Positions 17,080 to 58,057 of a stretch of 64,000 bases of DNA are shown in pieces. The position numbers were made by a program, and so were the translations under genes. Position 1 is the first letter of the stretch. Every line of letters starts with the position of its first letter. The notes beneath the pieces are model-generated. The model was not told the DNA's origin and did not search any database. It saw only the letters and a program-made list of their open reading frames with translations. Source of the DNA: an uncultured Mycoplasmatota bacterium (GTDB lineage Bacteria > Bacillota_I > Bacilli_A > RF39 > UBA660); contig CAMLWC010000003.1 of the NCBI GenBank assembly GCA_946488855.1, positions 3,349 through 67,348 of the forward strand, written 5' to 3'.

Positions 17080-17096
17080 AAAATTCCTCCTAAGGT

Positions 17097-17153: not shown

Positions 17154-17785
17154 GATTTTAATTTGGTTAATATTTTTTGTTCACCACGTGAAACTTGAAC
17201 TTGACTTATTCCAAGTTCATTAGCTGTTTGTTGTTGTGTTAAATCATACATATAACGTTTATTTATTAATTCTTGTTCAAAAGGATTAAGTTTAGATAAT
17301 TCTTCTTTTAAAAGTAATAAATCATCAATATCGTCAGTCTTACCAATAGTATCTTGTAAAGTTATGTCTTTTCCTTCATCATTTAATGGTTCATCAATAC
17401 TATAAATTGGTTTATTACTATTTATAGCTTCTTCAATCATATAAGTTGGAATTTCTAAATAATCAGATAATTCCAAAATAGTAGGTGTTCTCATCAATTT
17501 TTGAGTTAATAAAATATTAGCTTTTTCTATTTTTAAATTTAATAATTGAATATTTCTACTTATTTTAATACTTTTATCTTCACGAACTAACTTCTTCATT
17601 TCACCTAAAATATAAGGATACGCATAAGTTGTAAATTTAACATTCATATCAGGATTATAATTTTTATAAGCCATAATCATTCCAATACATCCTGCTTGAA
17701 ATAAATCTTCTTTATTTGAATATTTTTCAAAATATCTCGTAATTGAATAAATTAAATTTTTATTTTCGAATATTAGTTCTTCCAT
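17138..17785 (-). CDS. sigF: Sporulation-type sigma-70 family factor (SigF/SigG-like)
   Basis: Region 2 FQAGCIGMIMAYKNYNP..FTTYAYPYILGEMKKLVRE and region 4 LGISQVQVSRGEQKILTKLK closely parallel B. subtilis SigF (LGISQVQVSRLEKKIL). It is preceded by a STAS gene and followed by spoVA. Confidence 0.75.
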   Translation of the reverse strand: MEELIFENKNLIYSITRYFEKYSNKEDLFQAGCIGMIMAYKNYNPDMNVKFTTYAYPYILGEMKKLVREDKSIKISRNIQLLNLKIEKANILLTQKLMRTPTILELSDYLEIPTYMIEEAINSNKPIYSIDEPLNDEGKDITLQDTIGKTDDIDDLLLLKEELSKLNPFEQELINKRYMYDLTQQQTANELGISQVQVSRGEQKILTKLKSKLVA

Positions 17786-17794
17786 TTATTCCTC

Positions 17795-18157
17795 CTATAA
17801 ATTAATTACATTAACAGCACTTAATTCATCAGACGTTTCATACATATATTTTAATAATCTACTATTATTTATTCTATGTTTAACTAAATTATTATTCATA
17901 CCACATACTAAACTTTTGCCATTATTTATTTTGCATAATTCATAATTATTAAGTAATGCATTAATACCATAACAATCAATTGATTCTAATTCACTTATAT
18001 TAAAAACTAAATTTCTAATACCATTTTCTCTTACTAAATTATTTACTTCCTCTTTTAATTTATTAACTGTACTTTTATTAAGAACTCCTTTTAATCTAAT
18101 AAATAAAATTCCTTTACAAAATTCTAAATTAATATCTAACAATCTATCACCTTCCAT
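17795..18157 (-). CDS. STAS-domain protein (SpoIIAA-like anti-sigma-factor antagonist homolog) lacking the conserved Ser
   Basis: It aligns by eye along the full length with B. subtilis SpoIIAA. The motif LSFMDSSGLG corresponds to LESIDCYGIN here, so Ser57/Ser58 become Cys/Tyr. Confidence 0.65.
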   Translation of the reverse strand: MEGDRLLDINLEFCKGILFIRLKGVLNKSTVNKLKEEVNNLVRENGIRNLVFNISELESIDCYGINALLNNYELCKINNGKSLVCGMNNNLVKHRINNSRLLKYMYETSDELSAVNVINL

Positions 18158-18209
18158 AATAATTTAGCACAACTTTTTTCAAAATTATACACAATCGACA
18201 AAACTAGAA

Positions 18210-33649: not shown

Positions 33650-34447
33650 ATGACAAATAATATGTTAGAATTTAAAGATTTTTTAGATTATTTTCAAAAT
33701 GTCATAAGTTTAAAATCAAATGGAATTGTAAAAATAAAAATTTATTATAAGGATAATGCATTATTTATTGAATCTAATGAAGCTAATGGTAAAGCTGTTG
33801 ATTACTTTAATTGTTCAAAAAATATGTATGATAAAATTGTTGAATTATTACTTTCAAATTTTATTTTAGAAAACAAAATTATGGTAGCTTATAAAAATAA
33901 AAATCAATATACAATTAAAAGTGAAAAATTTGAAATCGCTGCTGATGTAACTGATGAAATGTTTAATGATTTATCAAAAAAAATATTTTCTAAACAAGAT
34001 AAACATAATTTTGAAGCAAAAAAAGAAATGAGCGAATTTGAAAAAATAAGTTCTTTCTATGCTGATTATAATATGTTTTTAAAAAGATGTTTAAAAAATG
34101 ATGGAAAAAATGATATATCTTTAAATTATAATAATGGTATATTTAGTATTATAATAACGAACAACGAACAAATTATTTTTAGTAAAAAAATTAATTGTAG
34201 TATTATTAAAGCAAATTATTTATTTAAAATTATTTGTGAAAACATTATTGATTCAAATAGTATCATTATTTCAAGTATAAATAAAATAACTGAAAATGCA
34301 AAATACATAAAAATTCAAACACCAAAATTCAATTTATCAATTCCTTATGCAAAAAATTTAGAAAAATTCCATATTGAAGCATTAAACAAAATGAATGAAT
34401 ACAATGTATCATTTGCTAATCAAAAAATAAAAAGTTCTACTCGTTAG
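33650..34447 (+). CDS. Hypothetical protein
   Basis: Start moved to MTNNMLEFKDF after an AAGGAGGG RBS. No recognisable motif. It converges on tyrS with an 11-nt overlap. Confidence 0.45.
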   Translation: MTNNMLEFKDFLDYFQNVISLKSNGIVKIKIYYKDNALFIESNEANGKAVDYFNCSKNMYDKIVELLLSNFILENKIMVAYKNKNQYTIKSEKFEIAADVTDEMFNDLSKKIFSKQDKHNFEAKKEMSEFEKISSFYADYNMFLKRCLKNDGKNDISLNYNNGIFSIIITNNEQIIFSKKINCSIIKANYLFKIICENIIDSNSIIISSINKITENAKYIKIQTPKFNLSIPYAKNLEKFHIEALNKMNEYNVSFANQKIKSSTR

Positions 34448-35669
34448 AACTTTTTTTTATACCTAAATAGTATTTTTTCTTTCCTTTTCTTAATACAATT
34501 ATCTCATCATCAATAGCCATATCTTTAGTTATTAATTTGTCTTCTAATATTTTTTCATCATTAATGCTAATAGCTCCATTATTAATAAATTCTCTTGCCT
34601 CTCTTTTTGAAGAACAAATACTATTATCAACTAATAAATCAACTAAATTTTTTTCTTCAAATTTAAAAGTTGGTACTCCTTTAAATCCTATCAATATTTC
34701 ATCTTTAGTTAATTTTTTAACATTGCCACTAAATAAAGATTCACTTATTCTAACAGCTTTTTCATATTCTTCATTTCCATGTAAAAATGTAATAACTTCT
34801 TTAGCTAAAGCCTTATGTGCTTCTCTTTTTTCAGGACAAGCTAAATGTTTTTTTTCTAATTCATTTATTTCATCAATCGATAAAAATGTTAATTTTTTTA
34901 AATATTCTATAACTTTACTATCTTCAGCATTTAAGAAAAATTGATACATTTCATAACTAGATGTTTTATTAATATCTAACCATATTGCATTTCCTTCTGA
35001 TTTACCAAATTTTGTTCCATCTGCTTTTGTAATTAATGGCATAGTTAAACCATATGCTTCTTTTCCTATTTTTTTTCTAATTAATTCTACTCCTGATGTA
35101 ATATTCCCCCATTGATCAGATCCACCTATTTGTAATGTACAACCTTTATTTTCATATAACCATAAAAAGTCTAAAGCTTGCATAATCATATATGAAAATT
35201 CAGTATATGTTATACCAATATCTAATCTACTTTTAACAGTTTCTTTATTTAACATATAATTTAAATTAAAATATTTACCATAGTCTCTTAAATAATCAAT
35301 AAAATTAATATCTTTTGACCAATCATAATTATTAACTACTTCAAAGCCAAATATTTTTTCAACTTGATTTCTTAATTTTTTATAATTATATTCTAATAAT
35401 TCTTTAGTTATCATAGGTCTTTCAGCGGTAGGTTTAGGATCACCTATTAAACCAGTTGCTCCTCCTACTAATAAAATTGGATTATGTCCACCTTTTTTTA
35501 ATCTTGTAGCCATTGAAAACGTTGAATAATGACCAATATGTAAACTATCTCCAGTTGGATCTGTTCCTATATAAAATGTTAATCCACCATTATTTATCTT
35601 TTCAATTAAACTTTCATCTGTAATATTTTCAATTAAACCTCTCCATACTAATTCATCATATAATTTCAT
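34437..35669 (-). CDS. tyrS: Tyrosyl-tRNA synthetase
   Basis: HIGH-type motif GDSLHIGH, KFGKS (KMSKS-type) motif, C-terminal S4 domain. Confidence 0.95.
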   Translation of the reverse strand: MKLYDELVWRGLIENITDESLIEKINNGGLTFYIGTDPTGDSLHIGHYSTFSMATRLKKGGHNPILLVGGATGLIGDPKPTAERPMITKELLEYNYKKLRNQVEKIFGFEVVNNYDWSKDINFIDYLRDYGKYFNLNYMLNKETVKSRLDIGITYTEFSYMIMQALDFLWLYENKGCTLQIGGSDQWGNITSGVELIRKKIGKEAYGLTMPLITKADGTKFGKSEGNAIWLDINKTSSYEMYQFFLNAEDSKVIEYLKKLTFLSIDEINELEKKHLACPEKREAHKALAKEVITFLHGNEEYEKAVRISESLFSGNVKKLTKDEILIGFKGVPTFKFEEKNLVDLLVDNSICSSKREAREFINNGAISINDEKILEDKLITKDMAIDDEIIVLRKGKKKYYLGIKKSSNE

Positions 35670-36151
35670 TTTTCATCTCTCCTATCTGTACTTCCAAATC
35701 CACCTTTTCTAATCTCAGTAACATTATCATCATCTGTAATCAAATATTTAATAAAGACTCCTTGGCAATATGCTTTATTTTTAGGAATAAAAATATCTTC
35801 ATTTCCCTCATTTTGAATTGATAACCACATATGTCCTTCATTAGATTCATTATTATAATAATCACTTTCAATTAATCCAACTTGATTAGTTAATCTTAAA
35901 TTATATTTAAATCCCAAACTACTTCTCATAATTAATAATAATGCTTCATCACTATTAAAGTTAGCTTTATAACCAGTTGGTATTTTAACTATTTCATTAG
36001 GTTTAATAACTATATCATCAATAGCAAAAAAATCATATCCTGCACTATTTTTAGTAGCTCTTTTAGGTAGCAAATAATTATTATATAAATTCAAATCATC
36101 TTTGATATCTTTTTTAAATTGTTCAAAACTTATTTTTTCAAAAAATCTCAT
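35666..36151 (-). CDS. dut: Trimeric-type dUTP diphosphatase
   Basis: SAGYDFFA, RSSLG, GLIESDYY, and the C-terminal GGFGSTD motif 5. Its stop overlaps the tyrS start by 4 nt. Confidence 0.85.
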   Translation of the reverse strand: MRFFEKISFEQFKKDIKDDLNLYNNYLLPKRATKNSAGYDFFAIDDIVIKPNEIVKIPTGYKANFNSDEALLLIMRSSLGFKYNLRLTNQVGLIESDYYNNESNEGHMWLSIQNEGNEDIFIPKNKAYCQGVFIKYLITDDDNVTEIRKGGFGSTDRRDEK

Positions 36152-36152
36152 T

Positions 36153-36632
36153 TCAATAACCTTCTTCTAATCTCTTTTCTTGCTTACTTATTTTTTTTAA
36201 ACAAGCATTATAAATTTCTTCTTCATTTAAATTTAATAATTTACCAATATAAATTAAATAATTAAAAATTTTAATTACATTTTCTTTATCTATGTTATCT
36301 ATTAATGAAGTAGATAATTTAAAGACATCATTTAAAGATATTAAAATATCATTGGAAAAATTGTAATTTTTAATCTTTATTTCTTTAACATTTAAATAAT
36401 TATAAAAATATAAACATATCATAATACAATCAGCTAATTCTTCTAATACATCATCTTTATTAATTGATTTTTTAGACCAATATTTAAAACATCTAGATTC
36501 GTTTGCAAATTCAGCTATCTCAACTATTAATTCAATACAGTTTTTTTCAAACATTTTATCATCGTTTTTAAATTTGTTATAAAATATTTCATCTAACAAT
36601 TTATTTCTAACATATATATCATTCCAATTCAT
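36153..36632 (-). CDS. Dimeric (all-alpha, dUTPase_2 family) dUTPase-like protein
   Basis: Start at MNWNDIY after a GGAGGTG RBS. Motifs ELIVEIAEFANESRCFKYWS, LEELADCIMICLYF and a C-terminal K..K.EKRLEEGY fit the dimeric dUTPase family pattern. Confidence 0.65.
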   Translation of the reverse strand: MNWNDIYVRNKLLDEIFYNKFKNDDKMFEKNCIELIVEIAEFANESRCFKYWSKKSINKDDVLEELADCIMICLYFYNYLNVKEIKIKNYNFSNDILISLNDVFKLSTSLIDNIDKENVIKIFNYLIYIGKLLNLNEEEIYNACLKKISKQEKRLEEGY

Positions 36633-36643
36633 AAACACCTCCA

Positions 36644-36845
36644 TAAAAAAATATTCATAGACTAAGGACGAACAAATTCCGCGGTACCACCTTAATTTAT
36701 GAATATATCATACACTTTAATTTATAACGCAATTACCCGTTTTAACTCCCAAAATGTAATTTATTATTTAATCTTGATTAGTTTTCATCAGCCACTAATT
36801 TTCTAAATTACCAATTAAATAACTATATTTTTGTTCTTCATTAAA
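36644..36845 (-). promoter_or_regulatory. T-box riboswitch leader, Tyr specifier (UAC)
   Basis: Minus-strand T-box sequence AATTAAGGTGGTACCGCGG (36697-36680). A specifier-like AAUUACAUU contains UAC followed by the conserved A. The distal element is AGTGGCTGATGAAAAC. A weak terminator helix and T-run end at ~36644, immediately before the RBS of the first gene. Confidence 0.8.
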
Positions 36846-36881
36846 TCTATAAATAATAATATCATATATTTAAAACAAATG

Positions 36882-37751
36882 TCAAACTATTATTCCATTA
36901 CTTTCTTTTATTAATACATTTAATTTATCAATTGTAAAATCATATGCTTCAATAACTTGTCTATTATTTTGTTTTCTACGCATTTTTTCTAGTATTTTTT
37001 CTTCTTTTATTATTTGAGCAACACTTAACAATCTAATTTGATTTATAAAAGTTAGTCTAACTAATTCACCAACATTACTATTCCACAAACCTTCTTTTCT
37101 TAACTTTGCAATATTTAAATATTTTCCATCATAAAATTGGTTTAAAACAATATTAGATATTTTATCTTTTGATTTAATTGGATTCCATCTGCCATCTATA
37201 ATTTGATGATAAATATCTAGTCGATCAACATCTTGTACTATCTGAGTTATTGTATCTATAACCTTTTGTTTTTCTTCTGTACTAGCAGTAGAAAAGAAAT
37301 CTAAAGCATCTTCATTTTTTAATAAATTTGAAGAAAGTATCAATAATTGTTTAGGATTAATAACTTTTGTAACATGATTATTAACTATTGATAATATTGG
37401 TCCATCAAAATTTCTAGTTATAGGTATTTGTGAATTAATTAAACCTGATTTTAAAACATAAGTACCTAATTCACCATGATTTTCAAAACAAAACTTATGC
37501 AATTCTATATCATTAAATGTTTTCGTAACACGAGCTTGCAAAAATCTGCCAACATCATGATTCATTAAAGCTATCTTTGTAAAATCTATAAACGATTCAT
37601 TAAAGTTTAATTTTTTAATAGTTTTTATTCCATCTATTACAACTTCATTAGTATGCATTCTTTTTTGTTCTATTAACTTACTAATATCACTTTCGTTAAA
37701 TGATGAAACATAATCATCAAAACACTTTCTTGCTGTTTGATAATATTCCAT
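36882..37751 (-). CDS. HD-domain phosphohydrolase (paralog of 4575-5318)
   Basis: MHTNEV...ALMNHDVGRFLQ...NHGELG...QDVDRLDIY has the same motif order as the HD protein upstream of valS. Confidence 0.65.
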   Translation of the reverse strand: MEYYQTARKCFDDYVSSFNESDISKLIEQKRMHTNEVVIDGIKTIKKLNFNESFIDFTKIALMNHDVGRFLQARVTKTFNDIELHKFCFENHGELGTYVLKSGLINSQIPITRNFDGPILSIVNNHVTKVINPKQLLILSSNLLKNEDALDFFSTASTEEKQKVIDTITQIVQDVDRLDIYHQIIDGRWNPIKSKDKISNIVLNQFYDGKYLNIAKLRKEGLWNSNVGELVRLTFINQIRLLSVAQIIKEEKILEKMRRKQNNRQVIEAYDFTIDKLNVLIKESNGIIV

Positions 37752-46710: not shown

Positions 46711-46998
46711 TTATTTTTCTAATAACCATCCTTCATAACCTTCTAAAATATTATATACTTTGTAACCTTTTGTAGCTAAAATATTACATACTTTTAAACT
46801 ATTTTTACCATATTGGCAATATATATAATATTCTTCATTCTTATTCAAATATTTTTCTGGTTCTTTAAGTAATAATATGTAAGGTATATTAATTGCTCCA
46901 TTTATATGGTTATCATTATATTTTTCAATACTTCTAATATCAATAATATTTATATTATTTTTATTTAATAATTCTTTTATTGAAATATTTAATACCAT
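46711..46998 (-). CDS. Single-domain rhodanese-like sulfurtransferase
   Basis: 95 aa with the active-site loop YCQYGKNS and IDIRS..EYNDNHINGAINIP. Confidence 0.8.
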   Translation of the reverse strand: MVLNISIKELLNKNNINIIDIRSIEKYNDNHINGAINIPYILLLKEPEKYLNKNEEYYIYCQYGKNSLKVCNILATKGYKVYNILEGYEGWLLEK

Positions 46999-47053: not shown

Positions 47054-49228
47054 CTACTCGTCATCATTAAAAAAATCATCAAAGAATTCATCATCAGAAA
47101 CTCCATTAATTACTTTGTTTTCTTCTTCTTTTAATTTAATCTCTGGCATTTCAACGACTTTACTTACATTTGTTGTTGCTTTTTCTACTTTATCATTATT
47201 TTCTTTATCTAAATTGTCATGATTTAAATTTGTAGATTTATTATCATTTGTAATATTTTGTTGTTCAACTTTTGTATTTTGTAAAGTAGCAACATTATTT
47301 TGATTCATTGAAGCATTTTTAGCATTTTCCTGTTTTTCTTGTTCTTCTAATTCAGCAATTTTAGCATCAATTCTCTTTACTAATGAATCTATATCAAAAG
47401 CATCATTTTTTGGCATTTCTCTTTTTTCAGGTCGTGGTATATTTGGCATTCCACCACTTACTGAACTCATTGGATTAAATGAATTCATCATTTCATTTAA
47501 TTTTGATTCTCTTTTTGCATCAACAAATGCTTTTATATCAAACAATTTAATTTCTTGTTTTTCTCTTTCTGGATAAGTAGCTTTAGGATATGATTTACCC
47601 CAGCCACCTTCTTTTTGAATTTTCCAATCAGGAACAACTTTTGTTTTAAAAGGCATTGATCTGATTCTTAAAACAATAATTGTATTTTCAGGTAATCGTT
47701 GTAAATCACTAACTGTTACTAAAGGTGTACTAGCTGTTTTATCCTTTTCTTTTGATTTAACTTCACCACATAATTTACTAATTTCCTCTAATGACGCTAA
47801 CTCACTACTAATAAGATATACAATATTACCACAGTTACCTTTAATAGTTTCTCCATTTTCTTTTCCATATACTTGATATAATTGAGCAAAGTTTTGAATA
47901 ATAAATGTAAATCTTATATTTCTACTTCTTGCTGCTGTAACCATTGTTGTAACATCTTTAAGTGGTGGCATATTAGCAAATTCGTCTAGTATGAAATTTG
48001 TTTTAAATGGTAATTTACCACCCGATTCTTGCGCTACATCAATTAATGTTTCATAACATTGCTTAATAAATATAGTAACTAATGAATGGTAAGTTTTCTT
48101 TTCATCTTGAATTACTAGGAAAACTGCTGTTTTCTTTCTACCAATATCTTTTAAATCAAAATCACTATGACTTAACATTTCTGATAAATTTTCTCTTGAA
48201 GAAAATAATTTTATTTTTTGCTTAAATACAGACAAAATACTACTTTTTGTATCATTTGGTGCCATAATAGTTGAAGAAACATTAATGTAAGCAGGACTTG
48301 ATTTATCCTTATAACTAAAGTACTCTTTTATATAAGTAGTATTTCCTATTTTTTCTTCACCAACAGTTGTCATTAAATTTATTGTATTTAAATTTATTTC
48401 TTCTTCTTTTGCATCTTCAAACAATGCTAAAGCTAAACCAGTAAAATAATCAGCAGAAGTTTTCTCCCAGAAAGGATCTTGACTTTGAGCTTTATCATCG
48501 TAAAGAATATTCATAGCTAAATCATCTAATAACTCATTTGCCTTATCTTTATTTCCACTTTTATATAATTGATATGGTAAACCTAATGGATTCCAAGCAC
48601 TTCCTTTTTGTGGATCACGGAAATTTAATAACACAATGTTATAACCTTTTTCTCTTAACATTTCTGCATTATTTTCATAAATTTCTCCTTTAGGATCGGT
48701 AATAATCATTGATTCACCTTTTTTAGCTAAAATTCTAACCATTGGTTGAACCATAGTTTGAGTTTTACCAGCACCAGTAGAACCTAAAATAAGATTATGA
48801 TATTCACCAGAATCAACCCATATTTCTTTACCATTATTTATTAAAGGAATACCTGCATATTCACTAGTTTCTTGATTTGGTAAAACTTTGTTAATACCAC
48901 TTTGTTTTTTAAATTCTTTTTCTTCTGCCCATCTAGAATAACCTTTTTCTTCTTTACTACCTGTACTAAATCCAAAACCTTTATCCCTTTCGAAGAAATA
49001 TGATGAAACACTTGTAAATATAAATATAAATGCAAATATATATCCAACTATTGTAGGCAATAAATATTCTTCAGTAAAAGCTGGAAATGGATCTAATCCG
49101 TGAAAACTGGCATCAGTTGCAAAACTAGAAATATTAAGCACTGCTATAGCAACAAAATATAATAATACAACTGCAAATATAGCAAATATTAAATAATCCT
49201 TGGCTGTTGCTTTAAATTTTAACTTCAT
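47054..49228 (-). CDS. VirD4/TraG-type type IV coupling protein
   Basis: Start at the ATG after an AAGGGG RBS. Two N-terminal TM segments, GYSRWAEE (the hGSARWA-like motif), Walker A GSTGAGKTQT and Walker B NFILDEFANM. The tail is long and low-complexity and ends DDEFFDDFFNDDE. Confidence 0.85.
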   Translation of the reverse strand: MKLKFKATAKDYLIFAIFAVVLLYFVAIAVLNISSFATDASFHGLDPFPAFTEEYLLPTIVGYIFAFIFIFTSVSSYFFERDKGFGFSTGSKEEKGYSRWAEEKEFKKQSGINKVLPNQETSEYAGIPLINNGKEIWVDSGEYHNLILGSTGAGKTQTMVQPMVRILAKKGESMIITDPKGEIYENNAEMLREKGYNIVLLNFRDPQKGSAWNPLGLPYQLYKSGNKDKANELLDDLAMNILYDDKAQSQDPFWEKTSADYFTGLALALFEDAKEEEINLNTINLMTTVGEEKIGNTTYIKEYFSYKDKSSPAYINVSSTIMAPNDTKSSILSVFKQKIKLFSSRENLSEMLSHSDFDLKDIGRKKTAVFLVIQDEKKTYHSLVTIFIKQCYETLIDVAQESGGKLPFKTNFILDEFANMPPLKDVTTMVTAARSRNIRFTFIIQNFAQLYQVYGKENGETIKGNCGNIVYLISSELASLEEISKLCGEVKSKEKDKTASTPLVTVSDLQRLPENTIIVLRIRSMPFKTKVVPDWKIQKEGGWGKSYPKATYPEREKQEIKLFDIKAFVDAKRESKLNEMMNSFNPMSSVSGGMPNIPRPEKREMPKNDAFDIDSLVKRIDAKIAELEEQEKQENAKNASMNQNNVATLQNTKVEQQNITNDNKSTNLNHDNLDKENNDKVEKATTNVSKVVEMPEIKLKEEENKVINGVSDDEFFDDFFNDDE

Positions 49229-49271
49229 TAAGTTCACCCCTTAATCATATATAAGTATATCATATTATTAA

Positions 49272-49946
49272 TTAAATTTCATTATTTTTTTTACCAATAA
49301 TTATAATAACAGAAACTGTGATTGCAATCAATAAAAATAATCCACCAAAAATAACAAATGTTAAAAAATTATTTTTTATAAATTGTAATATTTTATCAAA
49401 AAAATTTAATTGTTTTACAGAACCAAATTTGGCATAAATACTTTTTTCTTCAGCATTATTATCGTCAATATTCCATATAAGTTTACCATTTTTTATTTCA
49501 TCTGCATTACTTTCGATAATTTCATGATTTGTATTAATTACGACTTCAACATTATCAACTTTATTATAATCAACAAACATGCAATTAAATCCTTGACTAG
49601 TTGATAAAATATAATTATCATCATTAGTGACAAAACTAAATGCATCAAAACAACTTTTAATATAAAGAGCATGTCTAAATTCATCAAAATTATATGTATA
49701 TTGATAATTTGCAGTAAAATTTGTTATTCCATTATTATAATTTACTTTATATAATCTTTGATAAGTATTATCAAAAATTGAATATGCTTTATATTTTTTT
49801 ATATCTTCAATTTGTTTTTCATCAGATTTTTTTAATTCAACATTAATGTTTTCAATTAAATTTTCATCTTCAAATTTTAATTCATATTTAATTTGACATC
49901 CAGTTAATATAATGAGCGATAAAACCAAAATCATTATTTTTTTCAT
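49272..49946 (-). CDS. Lipoprotein with C-terminal TM anchor (T4SS accessory, unknown)
   Basis: Start at the ATG after a GGTGA RBS. Lipobox LIILTGC|Q and C-terminal TM segment FLTFVIFGGLFLLIAITVSVIIIIG. Confidence 0.55.
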   Translation of the reverse strand: MKKIMILVLSLIILTGCQIKYELKFEDENLIENINVELKKSDEKQIEDIKKYKAYSIFDNTYQRLYKVNYNNGITNFTANYQYTYNFDEFRHALYIKSCFDAFSFVTNDDNYILSTSQGFNCMFVDYNKVDNVEVVINTNHEIIESNADEIKNGKLIWNIDDNNAEEKSIYAKFGSVKQLNFFDKILQFIKNNFLTFVIFGGLFLLIAITVSVIIIIGKKNNEI

Positions 49947-49947
49947 T

Positions 49948-52416
49948 TTATTCACCTTTACCTAATATATAAACATATCCATTAAATGTATACCCAGTAT
50001 TATAGCTTTGTAATTGATCAAATGTTTTTGTTGTAGTATTAATTACTACATTCCCCCAAGTTGAAGAACCATTTGCTCCAGCAGCATTCCAACCTTCTGA
50101 CATTACGACCGTTTTGTTTTCATAATCAACACTTTCAATTATTGCAACATGTCCATAATTATGTCTTGCACCAGCACTTTCACTACTAGACCATGAAATT
50201 ATAGCACCTGGCATAGGCATATTTCTATCAGTACTTTTTTCAAAAATTTCTAAAGATGAATAATCAAACCATCCTTCTCCATTAGCACTAACCGACAATA
50301 TAGCATTTAATGCAATTGCTTTTGTCATATCATCCATATTCGATGACAATATTAATTCTAATGCTCTTGATTTAGCATACCAAACACATTGTCCTAAATT
50401 ACTTGCATTACTATTATATATTTTTGATAAATCAAATTGTTGTCCACCAATTGTTACAATTCCCAAAGACGCATAATACTCTGATCTTTCTTTTAACTCA
50501 GCAATACTAGAAGGTGGTTTTGAGGAACTTGCATATCCACCATAAACAGTATTCATTCCAACAATTTCGACACCATCTGAATAAAAGAATTTCAATATTT
50601 CATCATATGTTGAACCATTATTAGCCATTTCATATGATGCTACTTGACTCATACCACGACCATGTCCACCTGCAATCATATGATAATATTCAGGACTTAA
50701 ATAAACTTTATGTGTTTCCATAGTTGGCTTTTTTGAATATATTACATATCTTTTTCCATTTTCTTCACCATAAGTACAATTGCTATCACCATAACAATAT
50801 GAATCATATTCAGAAGAAAATATTTCATCATTATACACTAAAACCATACCAGAAGTTTCTTCAGTTGCTTGACGTGCAAAATCTTTTATATTTTCATTAA
50901 ATACTTGATCACTTTGGCTACTTTCAATAGCAACTGTACAATTTTTGGTTCTGCTTAAAGTGTAAGTTCTAACAGCAATTGCTTGAGCCTTATATGCTTC
51001 CATATTTTGTCCACCCCAAGCTTCACCACTTACAACTCCCGCGACATATTCCTCTAAATCATATGTGCCTTTAACGCTTCCGTCTTGATTTAAAACTGTA
51101 ACACCAGAACAATAAGCATAAACTTTTCCAAATTTCTTTTGATCAGTAAAGTTTTCATAAAATGATACTCTTAAAAAAATTTCTTCAACAGCTCGATCTA
51201 TTTTTCCTTGAGTTTCATCATTTTTTTTATTTTCATAATAAAATTTTTGAATAAATTCATCTTCTAAATATTCTCTATATCGTTCTATATCTAATTTATA
51301 TTTTTCTGAGTAATCTATTAATACTTCTCCAGTTTCTTCATCAATTACATCATCAGGACAAGAATAACTAATGTCTTTATAATTTTTATGATCACTTCCT
51401 TGGCACATATGTTTTCCATTAGGTGCTTCATATTCATCTCCATCTTTATAGCAACAATAACTAACCATTTTTGTTGCTAATAGATCAACTTTTTTTTCAC
51501 TTTTTTTAAAATCAACATAATTTGATGGTAAAAGATCTTCTAAACTTGTAGCCTCACCATCAGTTCCTTCTGTTGTAGAAAAAGGATCAGAATATGTAAG
51601 AGTAGCTGTTATTAAATTAGTGTTTAAAGTAACAAAATATGGATCTTTCTTATATTCTCCATAAACTTCATCTATTTTTTCATAAAAGTCATTTTGCTCT
51701 TTTTCTTCACATTCTGAATCAGTACACCAACCTCTAAAAGTTAATAAATTACCTAATTTCTCACCAAAAGTAGTTAATGTTCCAGAAATATTGCCGATTA
51801 TTTCATTAATAAAGAATAATGGTGATATAATAAGACAAATTATTGCTAGAATAATTATTGCAGTTAAACAGCCATTAATACTAACTATACCAGCAGTAAA
51901 AAATGTTATAATTTTCTTGGCTATATCGGCACTAAATTCTCCTTCTCCATCAACATTTTCTTCTTTTTCTTTATTTTTTCCAAAAAAATTAAACAAAGAT
52001 GGTTTCTTTAAAGGATTATTTATTTGTTTAGATGTTTCATTTAAAGCTTTTTTGCCCAATTCTGTTTTAGAAAATTGTTCAACCGCTATTCCTCCAACAG
52101 GTCCAACTGCAGCATCAGCTGCTTTCTTAGCACCTTCCTTAACAATTTGTTGTTTAGCCTGATTAATTTTATTTTCTCTATTTAAATTTTGCGGATTATT
52201 GTTTAAATTTTTACCTCTATTTAATTGATTATTAGGATGAAATTTTTGTTTTTGAAATTCATTATTATTTAAAGATTTATTATTTTCAATATTAGGAAAA
52301 GAAGAATTTAAACTTGGTATTTTTTGATTATTATTTTCATTTATTAGTGGTTCTTTTGGTGATGCTGAAAAATTTCCTTTTTGAGGAAATTTTTCTTTAT
52401 TTTCTTTATTGTTCAT
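49948..52416 (-). CDS. Membrane-anchored cell-wall hydrolase: SpoIID/LytB-like domain + C-terminal CHAP domain
   Basis: An N/Q/K-rich N-terminus is followed by TM segment FTAGIVSINGCLTAIIILAIICLIISPLFFI. The SpoIID-like core is YVAGVVSGEAWGGQNMEAYKAQAIAVRTYTL. The CHAP-like Cys is in GQCVWYAKSRA and the His in HNYGHVAIIESV. Confidence 0.75.
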   Translation of the reverse strand: MNNKENKEKFPQKGNFSASPKEPLINENNNQKIPSLNSSFPNIENNKSLNNNEFQKQKFHPNNQLNRGKNLNNNPQNLNRENKINQAKQQIVKEGAKKAADAAVGPVGGIAVEQFSKTELGKKALNETSKQINNPLKKPSLFNFFGKNKEKEENVDGEGEFSADIAKKIITFFTAGIVSINGCLTAIIILAIICLIISPLFFINEIIGNISGTLTTFGEKLGNLLTFRGWCTDSECEEKEQNDFYEKIDEVYGEYKKDPYFVTLNTNLITATLTYSDPFSTTEGTDGEATSLEDLLPSNYVDFKKSEKKVDLLATKMVSYCCYKDGDEYEAPNGKHMCQGSDHKNYKDISYSCPDDVIDEETGEVLIDYSEKYKLDIERYREYLEDEFIQKFYYENKKNDETQGKIDRAVEEIFLRVSFYENFTDQKKFGKVYAYCSGVTVLNQDGSVKGTYDLEEYVAGVVSGEAWGGQNMEAYKAQAIAVRTYTLSRTKNCTVAIESSQSDQVFNENIKDFARQATEETSGMVLVYNDEIFSSEYDSYCYGDSNCTYGEENGKRYVIYSKKPTMETHKVYLSPEYYHMIAGGHGRGMSQVASYEMANNGSTYDEILKFFYSDGVEIVGMNTVYGGYASSSKPPSSIAELKERSEYYASLGIVTIGGQQFDLSKIYNSNASNLGQCVWYAKSRALELILSSNMDDMTKAIALNAILSVSANGEGWFDYSSLEIFEKSTDRNMPMPGAIISWSSSESAGARHNYGHVAIIESVDYENKTVVMSEGWNAAGANGSSTWGNVVINTTTKTFDQLQSYNTGYTFNGYVYILGKGE

Positions 52417-52436
52417 AAACATCACCACCGCTTATT

Positions 52437-54221
52437 TTATAATCCGCCACCGCTTCCAAAAGAATCCAATTCTTGTTCAGTAGCAATAATATTTATTCTC
52501 ATACGTCTACTTCCACACACAAATAAAGCTTCACCTTGATTATATTTTTTAATACTTTCTTTTTCATTATCATTTAAATCAATTAATTTTGATAAATCTT
52601 CAACTGCTTGTTTTTTCAATCCCATAACCAAATAATATGAAGCGTTATCAAAAATTGCTTTTCCTTGAGTTATAACAGAAGGATCACTAAAATCAGAAGG
52701 TTGTTGAGTTATTATGATAGTACCAGTATTATATTTTCTAGCACGTCTTTGAATTTGACCTAAGAAATCAGCTCCTAAAACATTACTTCCAGAAATTAAC
52801 ACATGAGCTTCATCAACAGTTAAAACAGTATTAATACTTGAATCTAAAGTTAAACTCCAAGCATATTTCAATATATTGAAAAATAAAGCATTTCTGATAT
52901 TTTTATCACTATTCATTAATTCTTTAATATTAAAAACTATAAAATTGCTTTGAGGTTTAATAGTTGTATGACCATCAAAGTAATATCTTAATTCTTTAAT
53001 TAAAGGTCTAATTTTCAACTCTAATTTCTCTAAAATATCCTTTTCATGAGTTTTTTCAGGAATTGATAATAATTTTCCTCTAATTGTTGCATAAACATCT
53101 TTAAAGGTTGGATAATCTTCAGAAGTTAATTTAGAAAAATCAGTAGTAAAATCAATACCAAATCTTCTATAAGTATCTTGTACTATTTCACTAAATAAAT
53201 TAATTACATCTTCTTCAGTACTAGGGTCATAATATTTAATAAAAGCTTTAATAGATTGTAAAGTTCTTGTCAACACAGTGTAACCTAATCCTTGCTTAAT
53301 TTCATCTTCATCGGCATCCATAATTATTTCAAGTGGATTTACCATTCCAAATTCTCCACCTTTACCTAAATCAATGAAATCGCCACCATACAATCTAGCC
53401 ATATCTTCGAATTCACCTTCAGGATCAATAATTACTAATTGAATATCATTTCTAATATGAGTTCTAATTAATAATTTTGCTGCTGTAGATTTACCTGAAC
53501 CAGAAGTACCTAAAATAATTACATTAGCATTATTTCTGTTATGTTCCTTCTTAATTTGATATAAAAATTGATTAAATAAAATAACTCCTCCAGAAAAATC
53601 AACACCTAATAAACAAGATAACCCAGGATCTTTTATACTATCAAATATAAAAGGAAACATAGCTGCTATAGTTGGAGCAGGTATAGGGGTTCCTATTCTG
53701 CTTTCAATTGGTTGATTAGGATAAATTGGTAAAATAGATTTTAAAACTTTTTCTTGTTCAAATCGTAATGGAAAAGCTTTCATTTCCATTGCTTCTAAAT
53801 AACTTTTTACCTGCATTTTTTTTGAAATTAATTCTTCTTCTGAATCTGCAGTAATCATAACATGCATTTGAAAATCAAATATTTTTGATTGTGTACTAGC
53901 TAATTGTGAAATAAAATATTCCAATGATTCATAATCTTGCCTAATTCTTTCTTGAATAGTTTTATCATTTTCTTCTTGATATCTTGTTTTTAAATCTGCA
54001 ATTTCTTTATTTAACATTCTTTGTATTACACTAAATGGAAGAGGTATATGCTTAATTACAACTTTAACTCCAGACATACTTGTTAAATTTGCTAAATAGC
54101 CAGGAGAAATAAATTTTGGATACGAAATTACCGTTAAAATAGTTGCATATTTATCACTAATTACAAAATCACTTGATCTAAACTCCAATCCTTTTGGAGC
54201 AATTTGACTCTTTATATCCAT
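52437..54221 (-). CDS. VirB4/TraE/TrsE-type T4SS ATPase
   Basis: IAPKGLEFRSSDFVISDKYATILTVISYP N-region typical of Gram-positive VirB4 homologs, Walker A GTSGSGKSTAAK and Walker B LTVDEAHVL. Confidence 0.85.
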   Translation of the reverse strand: MDIKSQIAPKGLEFRSSDFVISDKYATILTVISYPKFISPGYLANLTSMSGVKVVIKHIPLPFSVIQRMLNKEIADLKTRYQEENDKTIQERIRQDYESLEYFISQLASTQSKIFDFQMHVMITADSEEELISKKMQVKSYLEAMEMKAFPLRFEQEKVLKSILPIYPNQPIESRIGTPIPAPTIAAMFPFIFDSIKDPGLSCLLGVDFSGGVILFNQFLYQIKKEHNRNNANVIILGTSGSGKSTAAKLLIRTHIRNDIQLVIIDPEGEFEDMARLYGGDFIDLGKGGEFGMVNPLEIIMDADEDEIKQGLGYTVLTRTLQSIKAFIKYYDPSTEEDVINLFSEIVQDTYRRFGIDFTTDFSKLTSEDYPTFKDVYATIRGKLLSIPEKTHEKDILEKLELKIRPLIKELRYYFDGHTTIKPQSNFIVFNIKELMNSDKNIRNALFFNILKYAWSLTLDSSINTVLTVDEAHVLISGSNVLGADFLGQIQRRARKYNTGTIIITQQPSDFSDPSVITQGKAIFDNASYYLVMGLKKQAVEDLSKLIDLNDNEKESIKKYNQGEALFVCGSRRMRINIIATEQELDSFGSGGGL

Positions 54222-54766
54222 TATCCTAACACCGTCCCAAAAGTAGTAGTAGTACCACCATTTAAAAAGTTATCCAAAATCATTCTTAAATCATCATTTG
54301 TCGTTTGATAAGCAACTAATCCAGCACCTGCTAAAGTATTAATCAAAGTTCTAATTCTTTTTTGAATTAAATCATCTTTCTTTTCCCTAAAAAGTAAAAA
54401 GTATTCTGTATCAACTATATTATTATTCATAAACATATTGCCTTTATTAATATCTTCCATGATCAATTTTCTCTTAACAGGATTACTTATATTATTATAT
54501 AAAAGTTCTAATTGAGATAAATAAACATTAATATCTACTGGTCTATCAGCTGCTATAATCCAAAATTCATAATCAATTGTATTATAAACAGTTCTTAAAT
54601 TAGCTATAATACTATCTTGAGTTAATTGATCCAAAATGAAAATATTTCTTGGCATTATTTTAACTCCAGTTACTTTTAAACCATTATCTAAAATAATATA
54701 ACCATTTTTAATTTCTTTTACAGGTATATCATCATTTGTATATCTATTTCTTTTTTTCTTCGCCAT
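54221..54766 (-). CDS. T4SS protein resembling the extra N-terminal module of Tn916 Orf16-type VirB4 proteins
   Basis: Start at the ATG (MAKKKRNRYTNDDIPVKEIKNGYIILDNG..VKIMPRNIFILDQ). Its stop overlaps the VirB4 start by one base (TAATG at 54223-54219). Confidence 0.5.
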   Translation of the reverse strand: MAKKKRNRYTNDDIPVKEIKNGYIILDNGLKVTGVKIMPRNIFILDQLTQDSIIANLRTVYNTIDYEFWIIAADRPVDINVYLSQLELLYNNISNPVKRKLIMEDINKGNMFMNNNIVDTEYFLLFREKKDDLIQKRIRTLINTLAGAGLVAYQTTNDDLRMILDNFLNGGTTTTFGTVLG

Positions 54767-55061
54767 GTGGAACACACCAACCTTTCCATTTAAATTTTCT
54801 TTGATTTGTATAAAATTCAATAGCTGAACCTATCAATGTTCTCATATTATAATAGTTAGGAACCGGCATCACTAAGAAACCTGTAATTAATGCCGGAAGT
54901 AAAGCTATTATAGATACTGCAAATTCTTCAAGTGGTAATATCATTAATAATAACAATGTCAATCCTACACCACAACCAAATAATATCAAATCAAATTTAG
55001 TAAACAAACCTAATATTAACATTGATTTTTTTGCATTTGCTGGTATCAAAAAATTATTCAT
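54744..55061 (-). CDS. PrgI/VirB3-like small two-TM T4SS protein
   Basis: 105 aa. IPANAKKSMLILGLFTKFDLILFGCGVGLTLLLL followed by a second TM segment, which matches the layout of PrgI-family proteins that precede VirB4. Confidence 0.6.
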   Translation of the reverse strand: MNNFLIPANAKKSMLILGLFTKFDLILFGCGVGLTLLLLMILPLEEFAVSIIALLPALITGFLVMPVPNYYNMRTLIGSAIEFYTNQRKFKWKGWCVPHGEEKKK

Positions 55062-55078
55062 CTAATATCACACCCTTT

Positions 55079-56917
55079 TTAATTATTATTTCTTCTTTGT
55101 TGTTTTTCTCTACTAGTGTTTGGATTTGGTTGACCAGGCACTGGATCACCACGTCCATTTGGACCATGAGTTGGTGGAATAGGTGATGGTTGTGTTGAAT
55201 TTCTATTTGCATTTTCATTTAAAATGTTCTTAGCTGTAGCAATGGCCTCATCAACATCTTTTTTAGGTGAATCATCAATATTATATAATCTCTTAATATC
55301 TTTAATTTGATCGTCAAGAGCACTAATATTTTTAGTGTATTTACCATATAATTCTCGATTATCTTTAATTTCTGTATTTAATTTTAATTTTTCTTCTTCT
55401 GTTGTTGCTTTAGTTAATTGATCATATAATGTTTGAAGGCGCGCATCAAGTTTAGCTTGTTCTCCTTGTAAAGCATATTTATATTGCTTTAATCCAGGAC
55501 TTTCTTTAGTTCCAATTTCTTTTTCACCAGCTGATTTTCCAAAATCTTTCCAAATACTATATTGTGTAAAATCTTTACCTGTTATTGTCTTATAACCTGC
55601 TTGCATACCTGTATGTAACGCACGAGGACTCTTTCCTTTATCGTCACCCATTAATGGAACTTTTCCTCTTATTTCTCTTCCGGCGCCCATCATACCTTGC
55701 CACAATCCTCTACCAGCATGTCCAGCTTCTACACCAGCTTTATATCCAGTATAAGCTCCCCCTGCTAAAGCTGCTGCTGTTGTAACACCTGCACCAACTA
55801 ATGGAGTTTGTCTCAATTTACTCATTGGATTAAGAGTAAATTTACCATCCATCTTAATACCAGTAATTTCTTCAATTAATTTAGGCAATTGTTTTGCAAA
55901 CAGCAATGCACCTAAAATTATAAACACTTTAACAAATGCATTAACATCAGCAGTTTGTCCAGTTACCATATCTTCAAATTGTAAATCAATAATTTGAGTT
56001 ACAACAAAAACTGCAAAATAAATTCCCATCAATCTTATAAATAAATCTAAATATGTATTAACACATGTTTTAACCCATTTATCAAACATATCTTTTCCTT
56101 TTTTAGGATCAATTCTAGAAATTATTGGTACTGGTGCTAACATTCTTAAAAATCCAATTTTTACACTTCTAACAGCTATATCAAAACAAAAAACAATTAA
56201 TAATAATACTATTGCTCCACCTGCTAAAGTAGAAATTATTGGAATATAATACATAACATAGTTATCATCTTGGCCTTTCAAAAATAGCAAATCATAATCC
56301 ATATAAACACTAGTGCTATTTGAATTATAAGCATTATTTAAAATAGTTTCTAAATTATTCCACTCATCATCCTTCAATCCTAAAGAATTTTCACAATTAG
56401 ATGCATTTTCAAAAGGTGAATCTTCTCCACTTGCACATTCAGGGTATAAATTAGTATCTATGTGATAAAAAGCTTTAAGTGTTTCATAAGCCATAACATT
56501 ACCTGCATCATCAGTTACATTTTCATTTAATCCATTCACAGAAAAAAATTTACCAATTATATTATCATTTAAAATAATTCTTTGAATATCCATTGCTTGA
56601 TTAAAAATCCAAGGAACAAATAATAATAAAGCTAAAGTAACTAAAATATTACTAATTAATTTGCTAAAGCCTTTACTTTTATCTAAAAAAGAATCTGGAT
56701 CAACTATGTATGTAAAAATAGAAAAAGACACTTTAAACAACATAAAAATACCTAAAAGGGCATATACTCGACTAGCAAACAATTCAAAAACATCACTAGT
56801 AAATATAGAAGTTTGTGCTATATCAGTTAATAAATTATAAACAGTTGATATGAAAGTATATATAACTTTATCAAGCCAAAATGATAAAAACCTTGCAATC
56901 CATTCTACCCATTCCAT
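55079..56917 (-). CDS. VirB6/TrbL-like polytopic T4SS membrane protein with coiled-coil and Pro/Gly-rich C-terminal tail
   Basis: Start at MEWVEWIARF after a GGGAG RBS. About 6 or more TM segments, then a soluble G/A-rich region, a coiled coil (LQGEQAKLDARLQTLYDQL) and the tail PSPIPPTHGPNGRGDPVPGQPNPN. Confidence 0.55.
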   Translation of the reverse strand: MEWVEWIARFLSFWLDKVIYTFISTVYNLLTDIAQTSIFTSDVFELFASRVYALLGIFMLFKVSFSIFTYIVDPDSFLDKSKGFSKLISNILVTLALLLFVPWIFNQAMDIQRIILNDNIIGKFFSVNGLNENVTDDAGNVMAYETLKAFYHIDTNLYPECASGEDSPFENASNCENSLGLKDDEWNNLETILNNAYNSNSTSVYMDYDLLFLKGQDDNYVMYYIPIISTLAGGAIVLLLIVFCFDIAVRSVKIGFLRMLAPVPIISRIDPKKGKDMFDKWVKTCVNTYLDLFIRLMGIYFAVFVVTQIIDLQFEDMVTGQTADVNAFVKVFIILGALLFAKQLPKLIEEITGIKMDGKFTLNPMSKLRQTPLVGAGVTTAAALAGGAYTGYKAGVEAGHAGRGLWQGMMGAGREIRGKVPLMGDDKGKSPRALHTGMQAGYKTITGKDFTQYSIWKDFGKSAGEKEIGTKESPGLKQYKYALQGEQAKLDARLQTLYDQLTKATTEEEKLKLNTEIKDNRELYGKYTKNISALDDQIKDIKRLYNIDDSPKKDVDEAIATAKNILNENANRNSTQPSPIPPTHGPNGRGDPVPGQPNPNTSREKQQRRNNN

Positions 56918-56965
56918 ACAATCTCCCACTCTCTAATAAAGTTTACATTCATAAATAATTATATC

Positions 56966-57004
56966 ATAAAAAAAAAAGATAATAAATAGTTTTAATTATC
57001 TTTT
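56966..57004 (-). terminator. Rho-independent terminator downstream of the beta-helix membrane protein gene
   Basis: AAAAGATAAT (56974-56983) pairs with ATTATCTTTT (56995-57004) across an 11-nt loop, and a run of T follows on the minus strand. Confidence 0.6.
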
Positions 57005-57035
57005 TTAAATTGTTTAATTATCTTTTTTAAATTGT
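56992..57035. repeat. Perfect 22-bp tandem duplication spanning the gene's 3' end and a terminator arm
   Basis: TTAATTATCTTTTTTAAATTGT occurs at 56992-57013 and again at 57014-57035. Confidence 0.9.
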
Positions 57036-58057
57036 TGTAATATTATTCCCATACCAATCATGACACTTATTACACTAAATAAAGTTCCTATATATGGTAT
57101 AATCGTTAAAATACTAATAACACTTATACCAATTAAACCTATTAAATAAATATTTTCATCTTTTTTAATAAAATTTTTCCAAATTAAGTTTCCTAATAAA
57201 TATGAAGTAAATATATTGGATAACCAAATTGCTAGAATATATAAAATCAATAATAAAATAGAAAGTGGTAAACAAAAAGTTAAAGTTAATAACATAATAA
57301 ATATAACAGGTATTAAAATAATAGATAAAGTACCAAATCCAAATAATGAGAATGCATTTAAAACTGTAATATTTTCATTTTTCTTTTGAATTCTTTTAAA
57401 TAATTGTGGAACTATCAATACAAAAGCTAAAAATATAACTAAATTTCCACCATAATTAACAATAAAATTCCATATTTTATCTTGAAATGAAACTTCTTTA
57501 GTTAATTTTTCAGTTGTTTTAGTTTCATTAACATTTCCGTTTATTGATATCGCAGCATCTTCATTATAAGATAGTGTCCCACTAACATTACCATCTACTT
57601 TTATTTCATTAGCTTTAATATTAACATTTCCTAATACTTCACCATTAACAGAAACATTCATAGCATAAATTGTTATATCTCTGTTTATCTTTCCATTTAT
57701 AGTTACATCACTACCAAAAACAACTAAATCACGATCAACATTTACATTTTCATCAAACTTAATTACATTACCAAAAATAAAACCGTCGTTATTAATAGTA
57801 CCTTTAACATTTACATTGTTACCAAATAAAAATGCATAATCACTTTTTCCATTAAATGTAACATTATTTCCAAACATCATATCAATGCCTTCAACAATAT
57901 TATTTGAATTTACATTATTTCCAAAAATAACAGAACTACCAACAACTTCTTTTGTGTCATCTACATCTTCATCTGCTATAAAATTTAAGCCATCCGCTCT
58001 TATAATCATAGGAAGAGTTAATAGACACACTATCAAAAAAATTAATTTCTTCATCAT
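57014..58057 (-). CDS. Exported beta-helix-repeat (bactofilin/polymer-forming-like) protein with C-terminal polytopic membrane domain
   Basis: Start moved to MMKKLIFLIVCLLTLPMIIRADG (signal peptide). Repeats follow of the form FGNNVNxxG / VFGSDVTINGKI / VSVNGEVLGNVNI, then 5-6 TM segments. Confidence 0.55.
   Translation of the reverse strand: MMKKLIFLIVCLLTLPMIIRADGLNFIADEDVDDTKEVVGSSVIFGNNVNSNNIVEGIDMMFGNNVTFNGKSDYAFLFGNNVNVKGTINNDGFIFGNVIKFDENVNVDRDLVVFGSDVTINGKINRDITIYAMNVSVNGEVLGNVNIKANEIKVDGNVSGTLSYNEDAAISINGNVNETKTTEKLTKEVSFQDKIWNFIVNYGGNLVIFLAFVLIVPQLFKRIQKKNENITVLNAFSLFGFGTLSIILIPVIFIMLLTLTFCLPLSILLLILYILAIWLSNIFTSYLLGNLIWKNFIKKDENIYLIGLIGISVISILTIIPYIGTLFSVISVMIGMGIILQQFKKDN

Follow-up and report, generated by a model that had tools for sequence, protein, structure and literature searches.

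The closest known analogue of the locus described here is the chromosomal, relaxase-less type IV secretion system (T4SS) of the Patescibacteria, or candidate phyla radiation (CPR), which includes TrsD, PrgI and arrays of VirB2 and is essential in S. epibionticum (Quinonero-Coronel et al. 2025, PMC12102498; Wang et al. 2023, reviewed in PMC12857230). Our locus is a cluster of seven genes at positions 47054-56917 (- strand) of a 64-kb stretch of contig CAMLWC010000003.1 from an uncultured Mycoplasmatota bacterium; this whole stretch is hereafter called the window. An earlier note, made from the sequence alone, had singled the cluster out as a compact T4SS wedged between core genes. Based on comparison with related genomes, the cluster appears with good probability to be the motor-and-channel half of a T4SS related to the mating-pair formation (MPF)-FATA type, which would be fixed in the chromosome, vertically inherited and host-serving in a clade of gut Bacilli. 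Like the T4SS of the Patescibacteria, it points to a monoderm MPF-FATA-type origin, is chromosomal, lineage-wide and usually without a relaxase in hosts of small genome, and includes a TrsD-like protein beside VirB4, wall hydrolases, and what are probably PrgI-like and VirB6-like proteins. Divergent VirB2-like (PF18895) pilin arrays and type IV pilus genes are also shared, here in relatives of the window species. The two differ in that the window itself has no pilin array, that its hosts are Bacilli that have a cell wall, form spores and carry genomes of ~1.5 Mb, and that the nearest named VirB4 relatives are from Erysipelotrichales rather than CPR. Furthermore, VirD4 is here encoded in the operon and strongly conserved, whereas that of CPR is mostly encoded remotely and is dispensable in S. 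epibionticum.

Conjugative T4SSs of Gram-positive bacteria, including Prg/Pcf of pCF10, CD1110/CD1115 of CTn2 and an integrative and conjugative element (ICE) of Thomasclavelia ramosa, share with the cluster a VirB6/PrgH-like protein, a PrgI-like protein, a VirB4 with its N-domain split off, a hydrolase and VirD4, the T. ramosa ICE in the same arrangement (121/225/606 aa). Unlike these systems, the cluster has no relaxase, single-stranded DNA-binding protein (SSB), primase, recombinase, adhesin/sortase pilus or att sites, occupies a fixed chromosomal locus, and is at most 35% identical in VirB4. The ICE of Mycoplasma (VirB4 Mbov_0397/CDS17, VirD4 CDS5 and lipoprotein CDS14) supplies the best NCBIfam model for VirB4 and likewise combines a minimal T4SS with a surface lipoprotein. 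The cluster departs from this element in that its VirB4 scores 363 bits against an equivalog cutoff of 590 and is split into three open reading frames (ORFs), and in that it has no DDE transposase and is not mobile. A 2025 survey assigned the relaxases of ICEs and integrative and mobilizable elements of Mollicutes mainly to MOBV. The host of the cluster has a cell wall, and thus a hydrolase is needed here, unlike in the Mycoplasma ICE. In Mycoplasma, the ICE T4SS machine moves chromosomal DNA and, to our knowledge, no canonical relaxase has been recognised in the prototype element.

T4SSs exapted for host use are known to us from few lineages, namely ComB, the gonococcal genetic island, Ced/Ted, the effector translocators of diderms and, recently, the Patescibacteria. 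ComB of H. pylori (DNA uptake), the gonococcal genetic island (DNA release) and archaeal Ced/Ted (DNA import, PMC9905601) resemble the cluster as conjugation machinery kept for the use of the host, and Ced operates with a type IV pilus. Unlike the cluster, ComB and Ced have no VirD4 and the gonococcal genetic island was horizontally acquired and keeps a relaxase; no MPF-FATA system of Firmicutes is among them. No published description of such a T4SS in these Bacilli was found in the literature on RFN20/RF39, on VirB2 in Erysipelotrichales and on PF18895. The locus would add to the exapted T4SSs a clade represented by 80 or more species-level genomes, and probably by several hundred, of abundant uncultured Bacilli of the human and animal gut, in which a Gram-positive conjugation machine would be a core-like chromosomal trait.

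Results and Discussion

Conservation and selection at the rhodanese-rmuC locus

Relatives of VirB4 were detected in at least 565 of 600 pattern-matched stretches from species-representative genomes, and the best 80 VirB4-anchored loci (78-98% identical), taken at one genome per species, were used for comparison, with gene order established by tblastn and ORF clustering. (L numbers designate these related loci and X numbers protein families.) Essentially all 80 retained the order VirB6, PrgI-like protein (B3), TrsD-like VirB4 N-domain (B4N), VirB4 motor part (B4C), hydrolase, lipoprotein and VirD4, followed by rhodanese-rmuC-DUF2238-rnr-smpB; in the full order, X151, X145, X328 and a variable number of X110 genes stand ahead of VirB6. 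The junction of the cluster with rhodanese-rmuC was found in 80/80. When metagenomes were instead scanned from RmuC, an approach free of selection on the T4SS (loci with at least 5 kb upstream, n = 41), VirD4/T4SS was directly upstream in 37, and the VirD4-rhodanese-RmuC order was kept at most related loci. Comparison of the locus with relatives, along the lines proposed in the earlier note, thus revealed a cluster conserved at the rhodanese-rmuC locus and not a strain-specific insertion.

VirB4 was 85-97% identical across the 120 90%-identity clusters listed and was exactly 594 aa in all but four of these, which were truncated. Upon clustering at 50% identity, the clade collapsed to a single representative (72%), with the next full-length sequences at 45% and 41% and all others at 35% or below. 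The best plasmid match was 29-31% identical. The nearest named relatives were from Thomasclavelia/Coprobacillus, Solobacterium and a Mycoplasmatota plasmid; the nearest named outgroup, that of T. ramosa (35%), belongs to a conventional ICE that also carries a sortase pilus, SSB, Toprim primase and serine recombinase, and shares the split N-domain/VirB4 layout. Two closed chromosomes of 1.5 Mb carry the locus at 5-8% of the record coordinates (L047, OZ007038.1 105943-127724; L050, OZ007022.1 78231-100012), a position that would be origin-proximal, as reported for some Patescibacteria, if these records start at dnaA.

The ratio of nonsynonymous to synonymous substitution (dN/dS) was computed for the window genes against five related species. 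Values of 0.017-0.037 for VirB4, 0.02-0.08 for B4N, 0.04-0.16 for B3 and 0.07-0.14 for VirD4 were obtained, compared to 0.02-0.05 for RmuC and 0.06-0.09 for Rnr, and these four T4SS proteins were found to be in the same range as RmuC, Rnr and SmpB. Against L010, a different species with the same truncated junction as the window, the ratios were 0.017 for VirB4, 0.024 for B4N, 0.043 for B3 and 0.098 for VirD4 at a dS of ~0.7. Nucleotide distances of the T4SS ATPases (0.105-0.21) tracked those of core genes (0.073-0.235). The window is 24% GC, and the GC content at third codon positions (GC3) of the cluster genes (0.07-0.20) overlapped that of the flanking genes (0.03-0.14); by this check, which the earlier note had also proposed, there was no sign of recent acquisition.

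Taken together, the synteny, core-like dN/dS, core-tracking distances and steep drop in similarity outside the clade indicate that the cluster is old and vertically inherited. Between the two origins offered in the earlier note, the domesticated T4SS is favored by the shared locus across the clade and the core-like purifying selection on the ATPases, and the decayed ICE remnant is contradicted by dN/dS values of 0.02-0.16, a VirB4 of constant 594 aa and clade-wide synteny.

The seven genes of the cluster

The seven ORFs are co-directional, either overlap or are separated by no more than about 43 nt, are all intact, and were 99-100% identical in independent assemblies. Pfam annotation of the window genes was precomputed and was taken from an identical 67.9-kb metagenome contig that spans the whole window. 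Profile matches upheld the seven-gene assignment of the earlier note, with the calls for VirB6 and PrgI below threshold.

The gene at 55079..56917 (-) encodes a VirB6/TrbL-like polytopic membrane protein of 612 aa with a low-complexity C-terminal tail. It matched TrbL_4 (E = 1.7e-5, 24.8 bits vs a cutoff of 27) and NF045890 pLS20_p028 (E = 8e-10, 38 bits vs 150), both below cutoff, and a comparison with PDB sequences returned nothing significant. A PrgI/TcpE (VirB3)-like protein of 105 aa with two transmembrane (TM) segments is encoded at 54744..55061 (-); matches of the window protein to PrgI (E = 0.074) and TcpE (E = 0.031) were weak, 12 of 29 orthologues matched PrgI over the full length of the model (best E = 2.8e-4), and a weak PrgI_like domain was present in the precomputed Pfam annotation of relatives. 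For both proteins all scores were sub-threshold, and position, size and topology were fitting.

The third gene (54221..54775, -; ORF to 54820, 199 aa) encodes a protein of 184 aa from its ATG that covers positions 97-276 of the NF045975 VirB4 model (E = 1.4e-13) and matches PF26593 (TraC-like), by which it is recognised as a separate VirB4 N-terminal domain of the TrsD kind (PMC12102498). Its stop codon overlaps the start of the VirB4 gene (TAATG). The latter (52437..54221, -) encodes the C-terminal motor part of a VirB4-type ATPase of 594 aa (Walker A GTSGSGKST, Walker B VDEAH) that matched NF045975 (Mbov_0397) at model positions 295-891 (E = 2.6e-108, the 363 bits noted above) and NF045971 (CD1110) with E = 1.6e-54, also below the equivalog cutoff, as well as P-loop_TraG and AAA_10. 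The VirD4-type coupling protein of 724 aa, encoded by the last gene of the cluster (47054..49228, -), has the motifs GSTGAGKTQT (Walker A) and LDEFAN (Walker B) and an acidic C-terminal tail; it matched PF02534 (E = 1.7e-55), TrwB_AAD_bind, TraG-D_C and NF045973 conju_CD1115, the last with 298 bits and thus above the cutoff of 250. Both ATPases thus retain intact Walker motifs (A and B). The profile search suggested in the earlier note therefore placed VirD4 above cutoff and gave VirB4 a strong match, with PrgI weak for the window protein alone.

Between the two ATPase genes, a TM-anchored peptidoglycan hydrolase of 822 aa (49948..52416, -), analogous to VirB1, combines SpoIID (E = 2e-14) and CHAP (E = 7e-12) domains. 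It is followed by a surface lipoprotein of 224 aa (49272..49946, -) with a lipobox (LTGC), an LppM-like beta-rich domain and a C-terminal TM anchor. Residues C20, Y24, N150 and W161 are invariant in the alignment of the lipoprotein family, and an LppM Pfam domain is found in 3 members. A structure predicted by AlphaFold2 from the single sequence was not usable (pLDDT 44); that based on a 16-sequence alignment had a pLDDT of 72 and its top Foldseek match was M. tuberculosis LppM (2nc8, E = 2.8e-6, TM 0.55), and the family profile found nothing significant among PDB sequences. The lipoprotein was considered as a VirB8-like protein (NTF2-fold, as PrgL, TraM and TcpC), and this candidate was rejected in favor of the predicted LppM-like fold. 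As it was the sole candidate in the window, the statement of the earlier note that no VirB8/TraM-like protein is encoded there stands.

Upstream of the VirB6 gene an AT-rich hairpin and an extended -10 box, TGaTATAAT, can be read from the sequence (56958..57006, -; hairpin ~57006-56972, box 56966-56958). The hairpin ends the upstream gene, and the box is likely the promoter of the cluster. Both were already described in the earlier note and both are also present in the sister species L010; a scan for consensus hairpins, which demands at least 3 G-C pairs, missed the AT-rich hairpin. At the other end, the sequence between virD4 and the rhodanese gene (46711..46998, -; PF00581, E = 1e-18), a conserved downstream neighbor, contains no terminator, again in agreement with the earlier note, and the rhodanese gene may therefore be co-transcribed.

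Pilin and pilus genes upstream of VirB6 in relatives

In nearly all relatives, genes for VirB2-like pilins (X110), X328, X151 and X145 are found upstream of VirB6 (relatives L012-L089; example L012:175-7171). The X110 genes occur as 1-6 tandem copies; 18 of ~35 proteins scanned matched PF18895 (best E = 6e-7) and one matched CagC, and in some the pilin carries a fused Cys-rich extracellular domain of 250-350 aa. X328 is a 328-aa protein without known family, and X151 and X145 are paralogous proteins, each with an N-terminal TM segment. The region often extends further to genes for a CpaB-like protein, an ATPase of the VirB11/TadA type, a small pilin-like protein and two polytopic proteins. The claim that the system is compact and consists of seven genes thus holds within the window and is incomplete for the clade, since most relatives add pilins, the three conserved genes and the Tad/VirB11-like module. 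According to a 2025 review, Gram-positive T4SSs other than those of Patescibacteria have no VirB2-type subunits (PMC12857230), a statement that the VirB2-like pilins of these relatives contradict.

The order in sister species is infB-rbfA-339aa-298aa-dUTPase2-dUTPase-tyrS-X151-X145-X328-X110-X110-VirB6, and all near-identical relatives of X328 that were looked up are in this arrangement from TyrS to VirB6. The 289aa-dUTPase_2-dUTPase-tyrS block, which is directly upstream of the T4SS module in the sister species (L090/L096), is at 34437-37751 in the window, ~10 kb downstream of the cluster. Judged from these gene orders, a local rearrangement separated or removed the pilin genes in the window.

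A more distant pairing of T4SS and Tad genes was observed on a 98-kb plasmid of a cold-seep Mycoplasmatota bacterium (L182, CP074574.1 14167-43900), the VirB4 of which is 31% identical and is followed by a Tad locus of a SAF/CpaB gene, an AAA ATPase, CpaF and T2SS-F (CpaB/CpaF/TadB-type). Its presence on this distant plasmid suggests that the pairing may be ancestral.

Mobility genes and alternative explanations

No relaxase, recombinase or replication gene was detected among the Pfam families of any gene in the 64-kb window, and no att-like direct repeats bracket the cluster, the only repeats being imperfect AT-rich ones expected by chance; annotation of all genes and the repeat search thus bear out what the earlier note had reported. 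Across the 80 related loci, where variable gene families were annotated in part, no conserved family resembles a relaxase, recombinase or replication gene, and no DNA-processing gene (SSB, primase, relaxase or nuclease) is conserved inside the locus, unlike in the nearest ICE. Genes for YhcG/DUF1016 PDDEXK nucleases (cluster c33) occur at varying spots in or beside the locus in L037, L050, L059 and L076, with the Pfam assignment made from the L059 copy.

Several observations weigh against a chromosomally fixed, vertically inherited and host-serving system. Among the RmuC-anchored loci, 4/41 had no T4SS upstream of rmuC (L115, L118, L123 and L130; RmuC 73-78% identical) and are possible losses or relocations within the clade. 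The distances among the window, L010 and L013 were mildly incongruent between T4SS and downstream core genes, which points to some recombination in the region. The VirB6 and PrgI assignments rest on sub-threshold profile scores. X151, X145, X328, X110 and the Tad-like genes have neither homologues nor remnants in the window, and the system of the window species may work differently or be partly disabled. Finally, a relaxase could sit elsewhere in the genome or be of an unrecognised family; CP074574.1 was typed as 'non-mobilizable' by MOB-suite with no relaxase recognised, and its T4SS lineage may thus use an unrecognised relaxase.

The alternative that fares best, though we consider it rather unlikely, is a working conjugation machine with a relaxase and oriT elsewhere in the chromosome or unrecognised, which would move chromosomal DNA or small mobilisable elements within the clade in the manner of chromosomal transfer in Mycoplasma or transjugation in Thermus. 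In its favor, the operon still includes a conserved VirD4 with intact motifs, the best VirB4 model is that of the Mycoplasma ICE family, whose prototype is not known to have a canonical relaxase, the related VirB4 and Tad genes of CP074574.1 lie on a plasmid without a relaxase recognised by MOB-suite, and there are signs of recombination among close species. The lack of an SSB, primase, relaxase or nuclease gene conserved inside the locus, so different from the nearest ICE, speaks against it, and DNA is only a putative substrate. This alternative is partly compatible with our preferred explanation, as it would likewise serve the host.

Considerably less probable is that the window species retains a truncated survivor, which lost its pilin, X151, X145 and X328 genes in the rearrangement and of which the seven remaining genes are non-functional or decaying. 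The low dN/dS between the window and L010, a separate species with the same truncated junction, is difficult to reconcile with decay, as are the intact ORFs, near-identical in independent assemblies, and the conserved promoter and hairpin. The absence of X151, X145, X328, X110 and Tad-like genes from the 64 kb, when they are directly upstream of VirB6 in sister species, speaks for such a truncation; against it, the missing genes may simply lie elsewhere in the genome. An ordinary ICE, of which the cluster would be a part or recent remnant with relaxase, recombinase and att sites outside the window, is highly improbable despite gene families that are those of Gram-positive conjugative elements, in view of the core genes on both flanks, the recurrence of the same rhodanese-rmuC junction in the best 80 species loci and in 37/41 RmuC-anchored loci, the divergence as in core genes, the overlapping GC3 and the absence of flanking repeats.

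Divergence of the surface parts

The relatives compared have core proteins that are 95-97% identical. By contrast to the conserved motors, VirB6 was 48-75% identical in amino acid sequence (dN/dS 0.26-0.49), the hydrolase was 34-59% identical to close-species orthologues (dN/dS 0.31-0.81), and the lipoprotein was 30-59% identical (dN/dS 0.31-1.0). By core genes the nearest relatives of the window are L010 and L013, yet its hydrolase and lipoprotein were nearer to those of L011, L012 and L014; these affinities, at odds with the core genes, point to cassette exchange or diversifying selection. The catalytic modules of the hydrolase also differed, with CHAP alone, NlpC/P60, M23, M23 plus lysozyme, M23 plus glucosaminidase, and SpoIID plus C39 found in relatives. 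Wall hydrolases are standard VirB1 analogues of Gram-positive T4SSs (PMC12102498), and the swapping of modules among relatives reveals that SpoIID is not a conserved part of the machine. A sporulation-linked system, which the earlier note had raised from the SpoIID domain and for which the spore-forming host and the SpoVA, YqfD, YabP and YlbD genes of the window could be cited, thereby loses its basis and is scarcely credible, as the hydrolase slot holds interchangeable modules.

Under the preferred explanation of a host-serving T4SS, an ancestor of this low-GC, small-genome clade of gut Bacilli (which carries the labels Bacilli, Tenericutes or Mycoplasmatota incertae sedis and lies close to Ca. 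Faecisoma and 'Acholeplasma sp. CAG:878') would have acquired the T4SS, probably from an ICE or plasmid, after which it would have been passed down vertically beside rhodanese-rmuC. The hydrolase would make a local opening in the wall, the membrane translocon would consist of VirB6, the PrgI-like protein and the TrsD-like/VirB4 pair, and VirD4 would recruit a substrate from the cytoplasm, be it DNA or protein. The lipoprotein, the loops of VirB6 and the N-terminal region of the hydrolase are predicted to face outward, together with the VirB2-like pilins and Tad-like pilus in most relatives, and these exposed parts may contact partner cells and diversify under selection. In this manner the T4SS would work for the host, exchanging or delivering macromolecules in a contact-dependent way, and would not be a means of self-transfer for an element. 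If DNA is the cargo, it could move without a relaxase or with one acting in trans, in the way of chromosomal transfer in Mycoplasma or of transjugation in Thermus (PMC12857230, PMC7767461). More tentatively, and as a possibility that we judge to have less than even chances, the vertically inherited relaxase-less T4SS may be a core organelle of the clade, equipped in most members with VirB2-like pilin arrays and a Tad-like pilus, which a 2025 review regards as restricted to Patescibacteria among monoderms. It could act in contact-dependent acquisition from or exchange with neighboring cells, whether as an epibiont-like dependence on other bacteria or as relaxase-independent exchange of chromosomal DNA, with the variable surface parts as determinants of partner specificity or evasion.

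Conserved motors beside hypervariable surface modules would provide a tractable comparative system for the question of which cargo such machines carry and for the evolution of partner specificity, and the locus may inform on the lifestyle of reduced-genome gut bacteria; its most striking parts, the pilin arrays and pilus genes, lie outside the window.

Neighboring genes and other features of the window

Nearly all genes of the window are on the - strand, and by Pfam the whole of it holds housekeeping and sporulation genes only. The core genes rimP-nusA-ylxR-infB-rbfA are on one flank of the cluster and rhodanese-rmuC-DUF2238-rnr-smpB, with ssrA (detected by ARAGORN), on the other; der, two dUTPases, tyrS, tsaEBD and uvrA are further housekeeping genes. 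The flanks are thus core genes as the earlier note described, with the correction that rbfA is separated from the cluster by two extra genes, a DUF2179 gene (+ strand) and a gene for a bactofilin-like membrane protein of 331 aa. The latter (57014-58009, -) is directly upstream of the cluster; its product has a weak bactofilin match (E = 1.4e-4) and a polytopic C-terminal half, and is 77% identical in L010, with an unrelated 339-aa protein occupying this place in sister species. An exact 22-bp tandem duplication (TTTAATTATCTTTTTTAAATTG x2, 56991-57034) extends across the stop codon of this upstream gene and is present as one copy in L010; it was considered as an att scar and rejected as a species-specific repeat of the 3' end of the gene. 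Similarly, the tmRNA gene was rejected as an island integration site, since ssrA is 5.4 kb away with five core genes between, and an alternative genetic code was rejected, as long ORFs are intact under table 11.

The closest named relatives are metagenome-assembled genomes (MAGs) labelled Ca. Faecisoma merdavium, 'Acholeplasma sp. CAG:878', Bacilli, Tenericutes or Mollicutes, and the lineage is placed by NCBI in Mycoplasmatota incertae sedis. Sporulation genes occupy 7500-19800 of the window (spoVAC/AD/AEB, a sigma factor, a STAS anti-sigma antagonist, yqfD, yabP and ylbD/ylbE), and the 'Tenericutes-like' gut MAGs of this lineage are walled spore-formers. Two small proteins with weak N_methyl (prepilin) matches are encoded at 1118-2025 (-), adjoining yfhO and lepA; they may be competence or type IV pilins, with no link to the T4SS locus.

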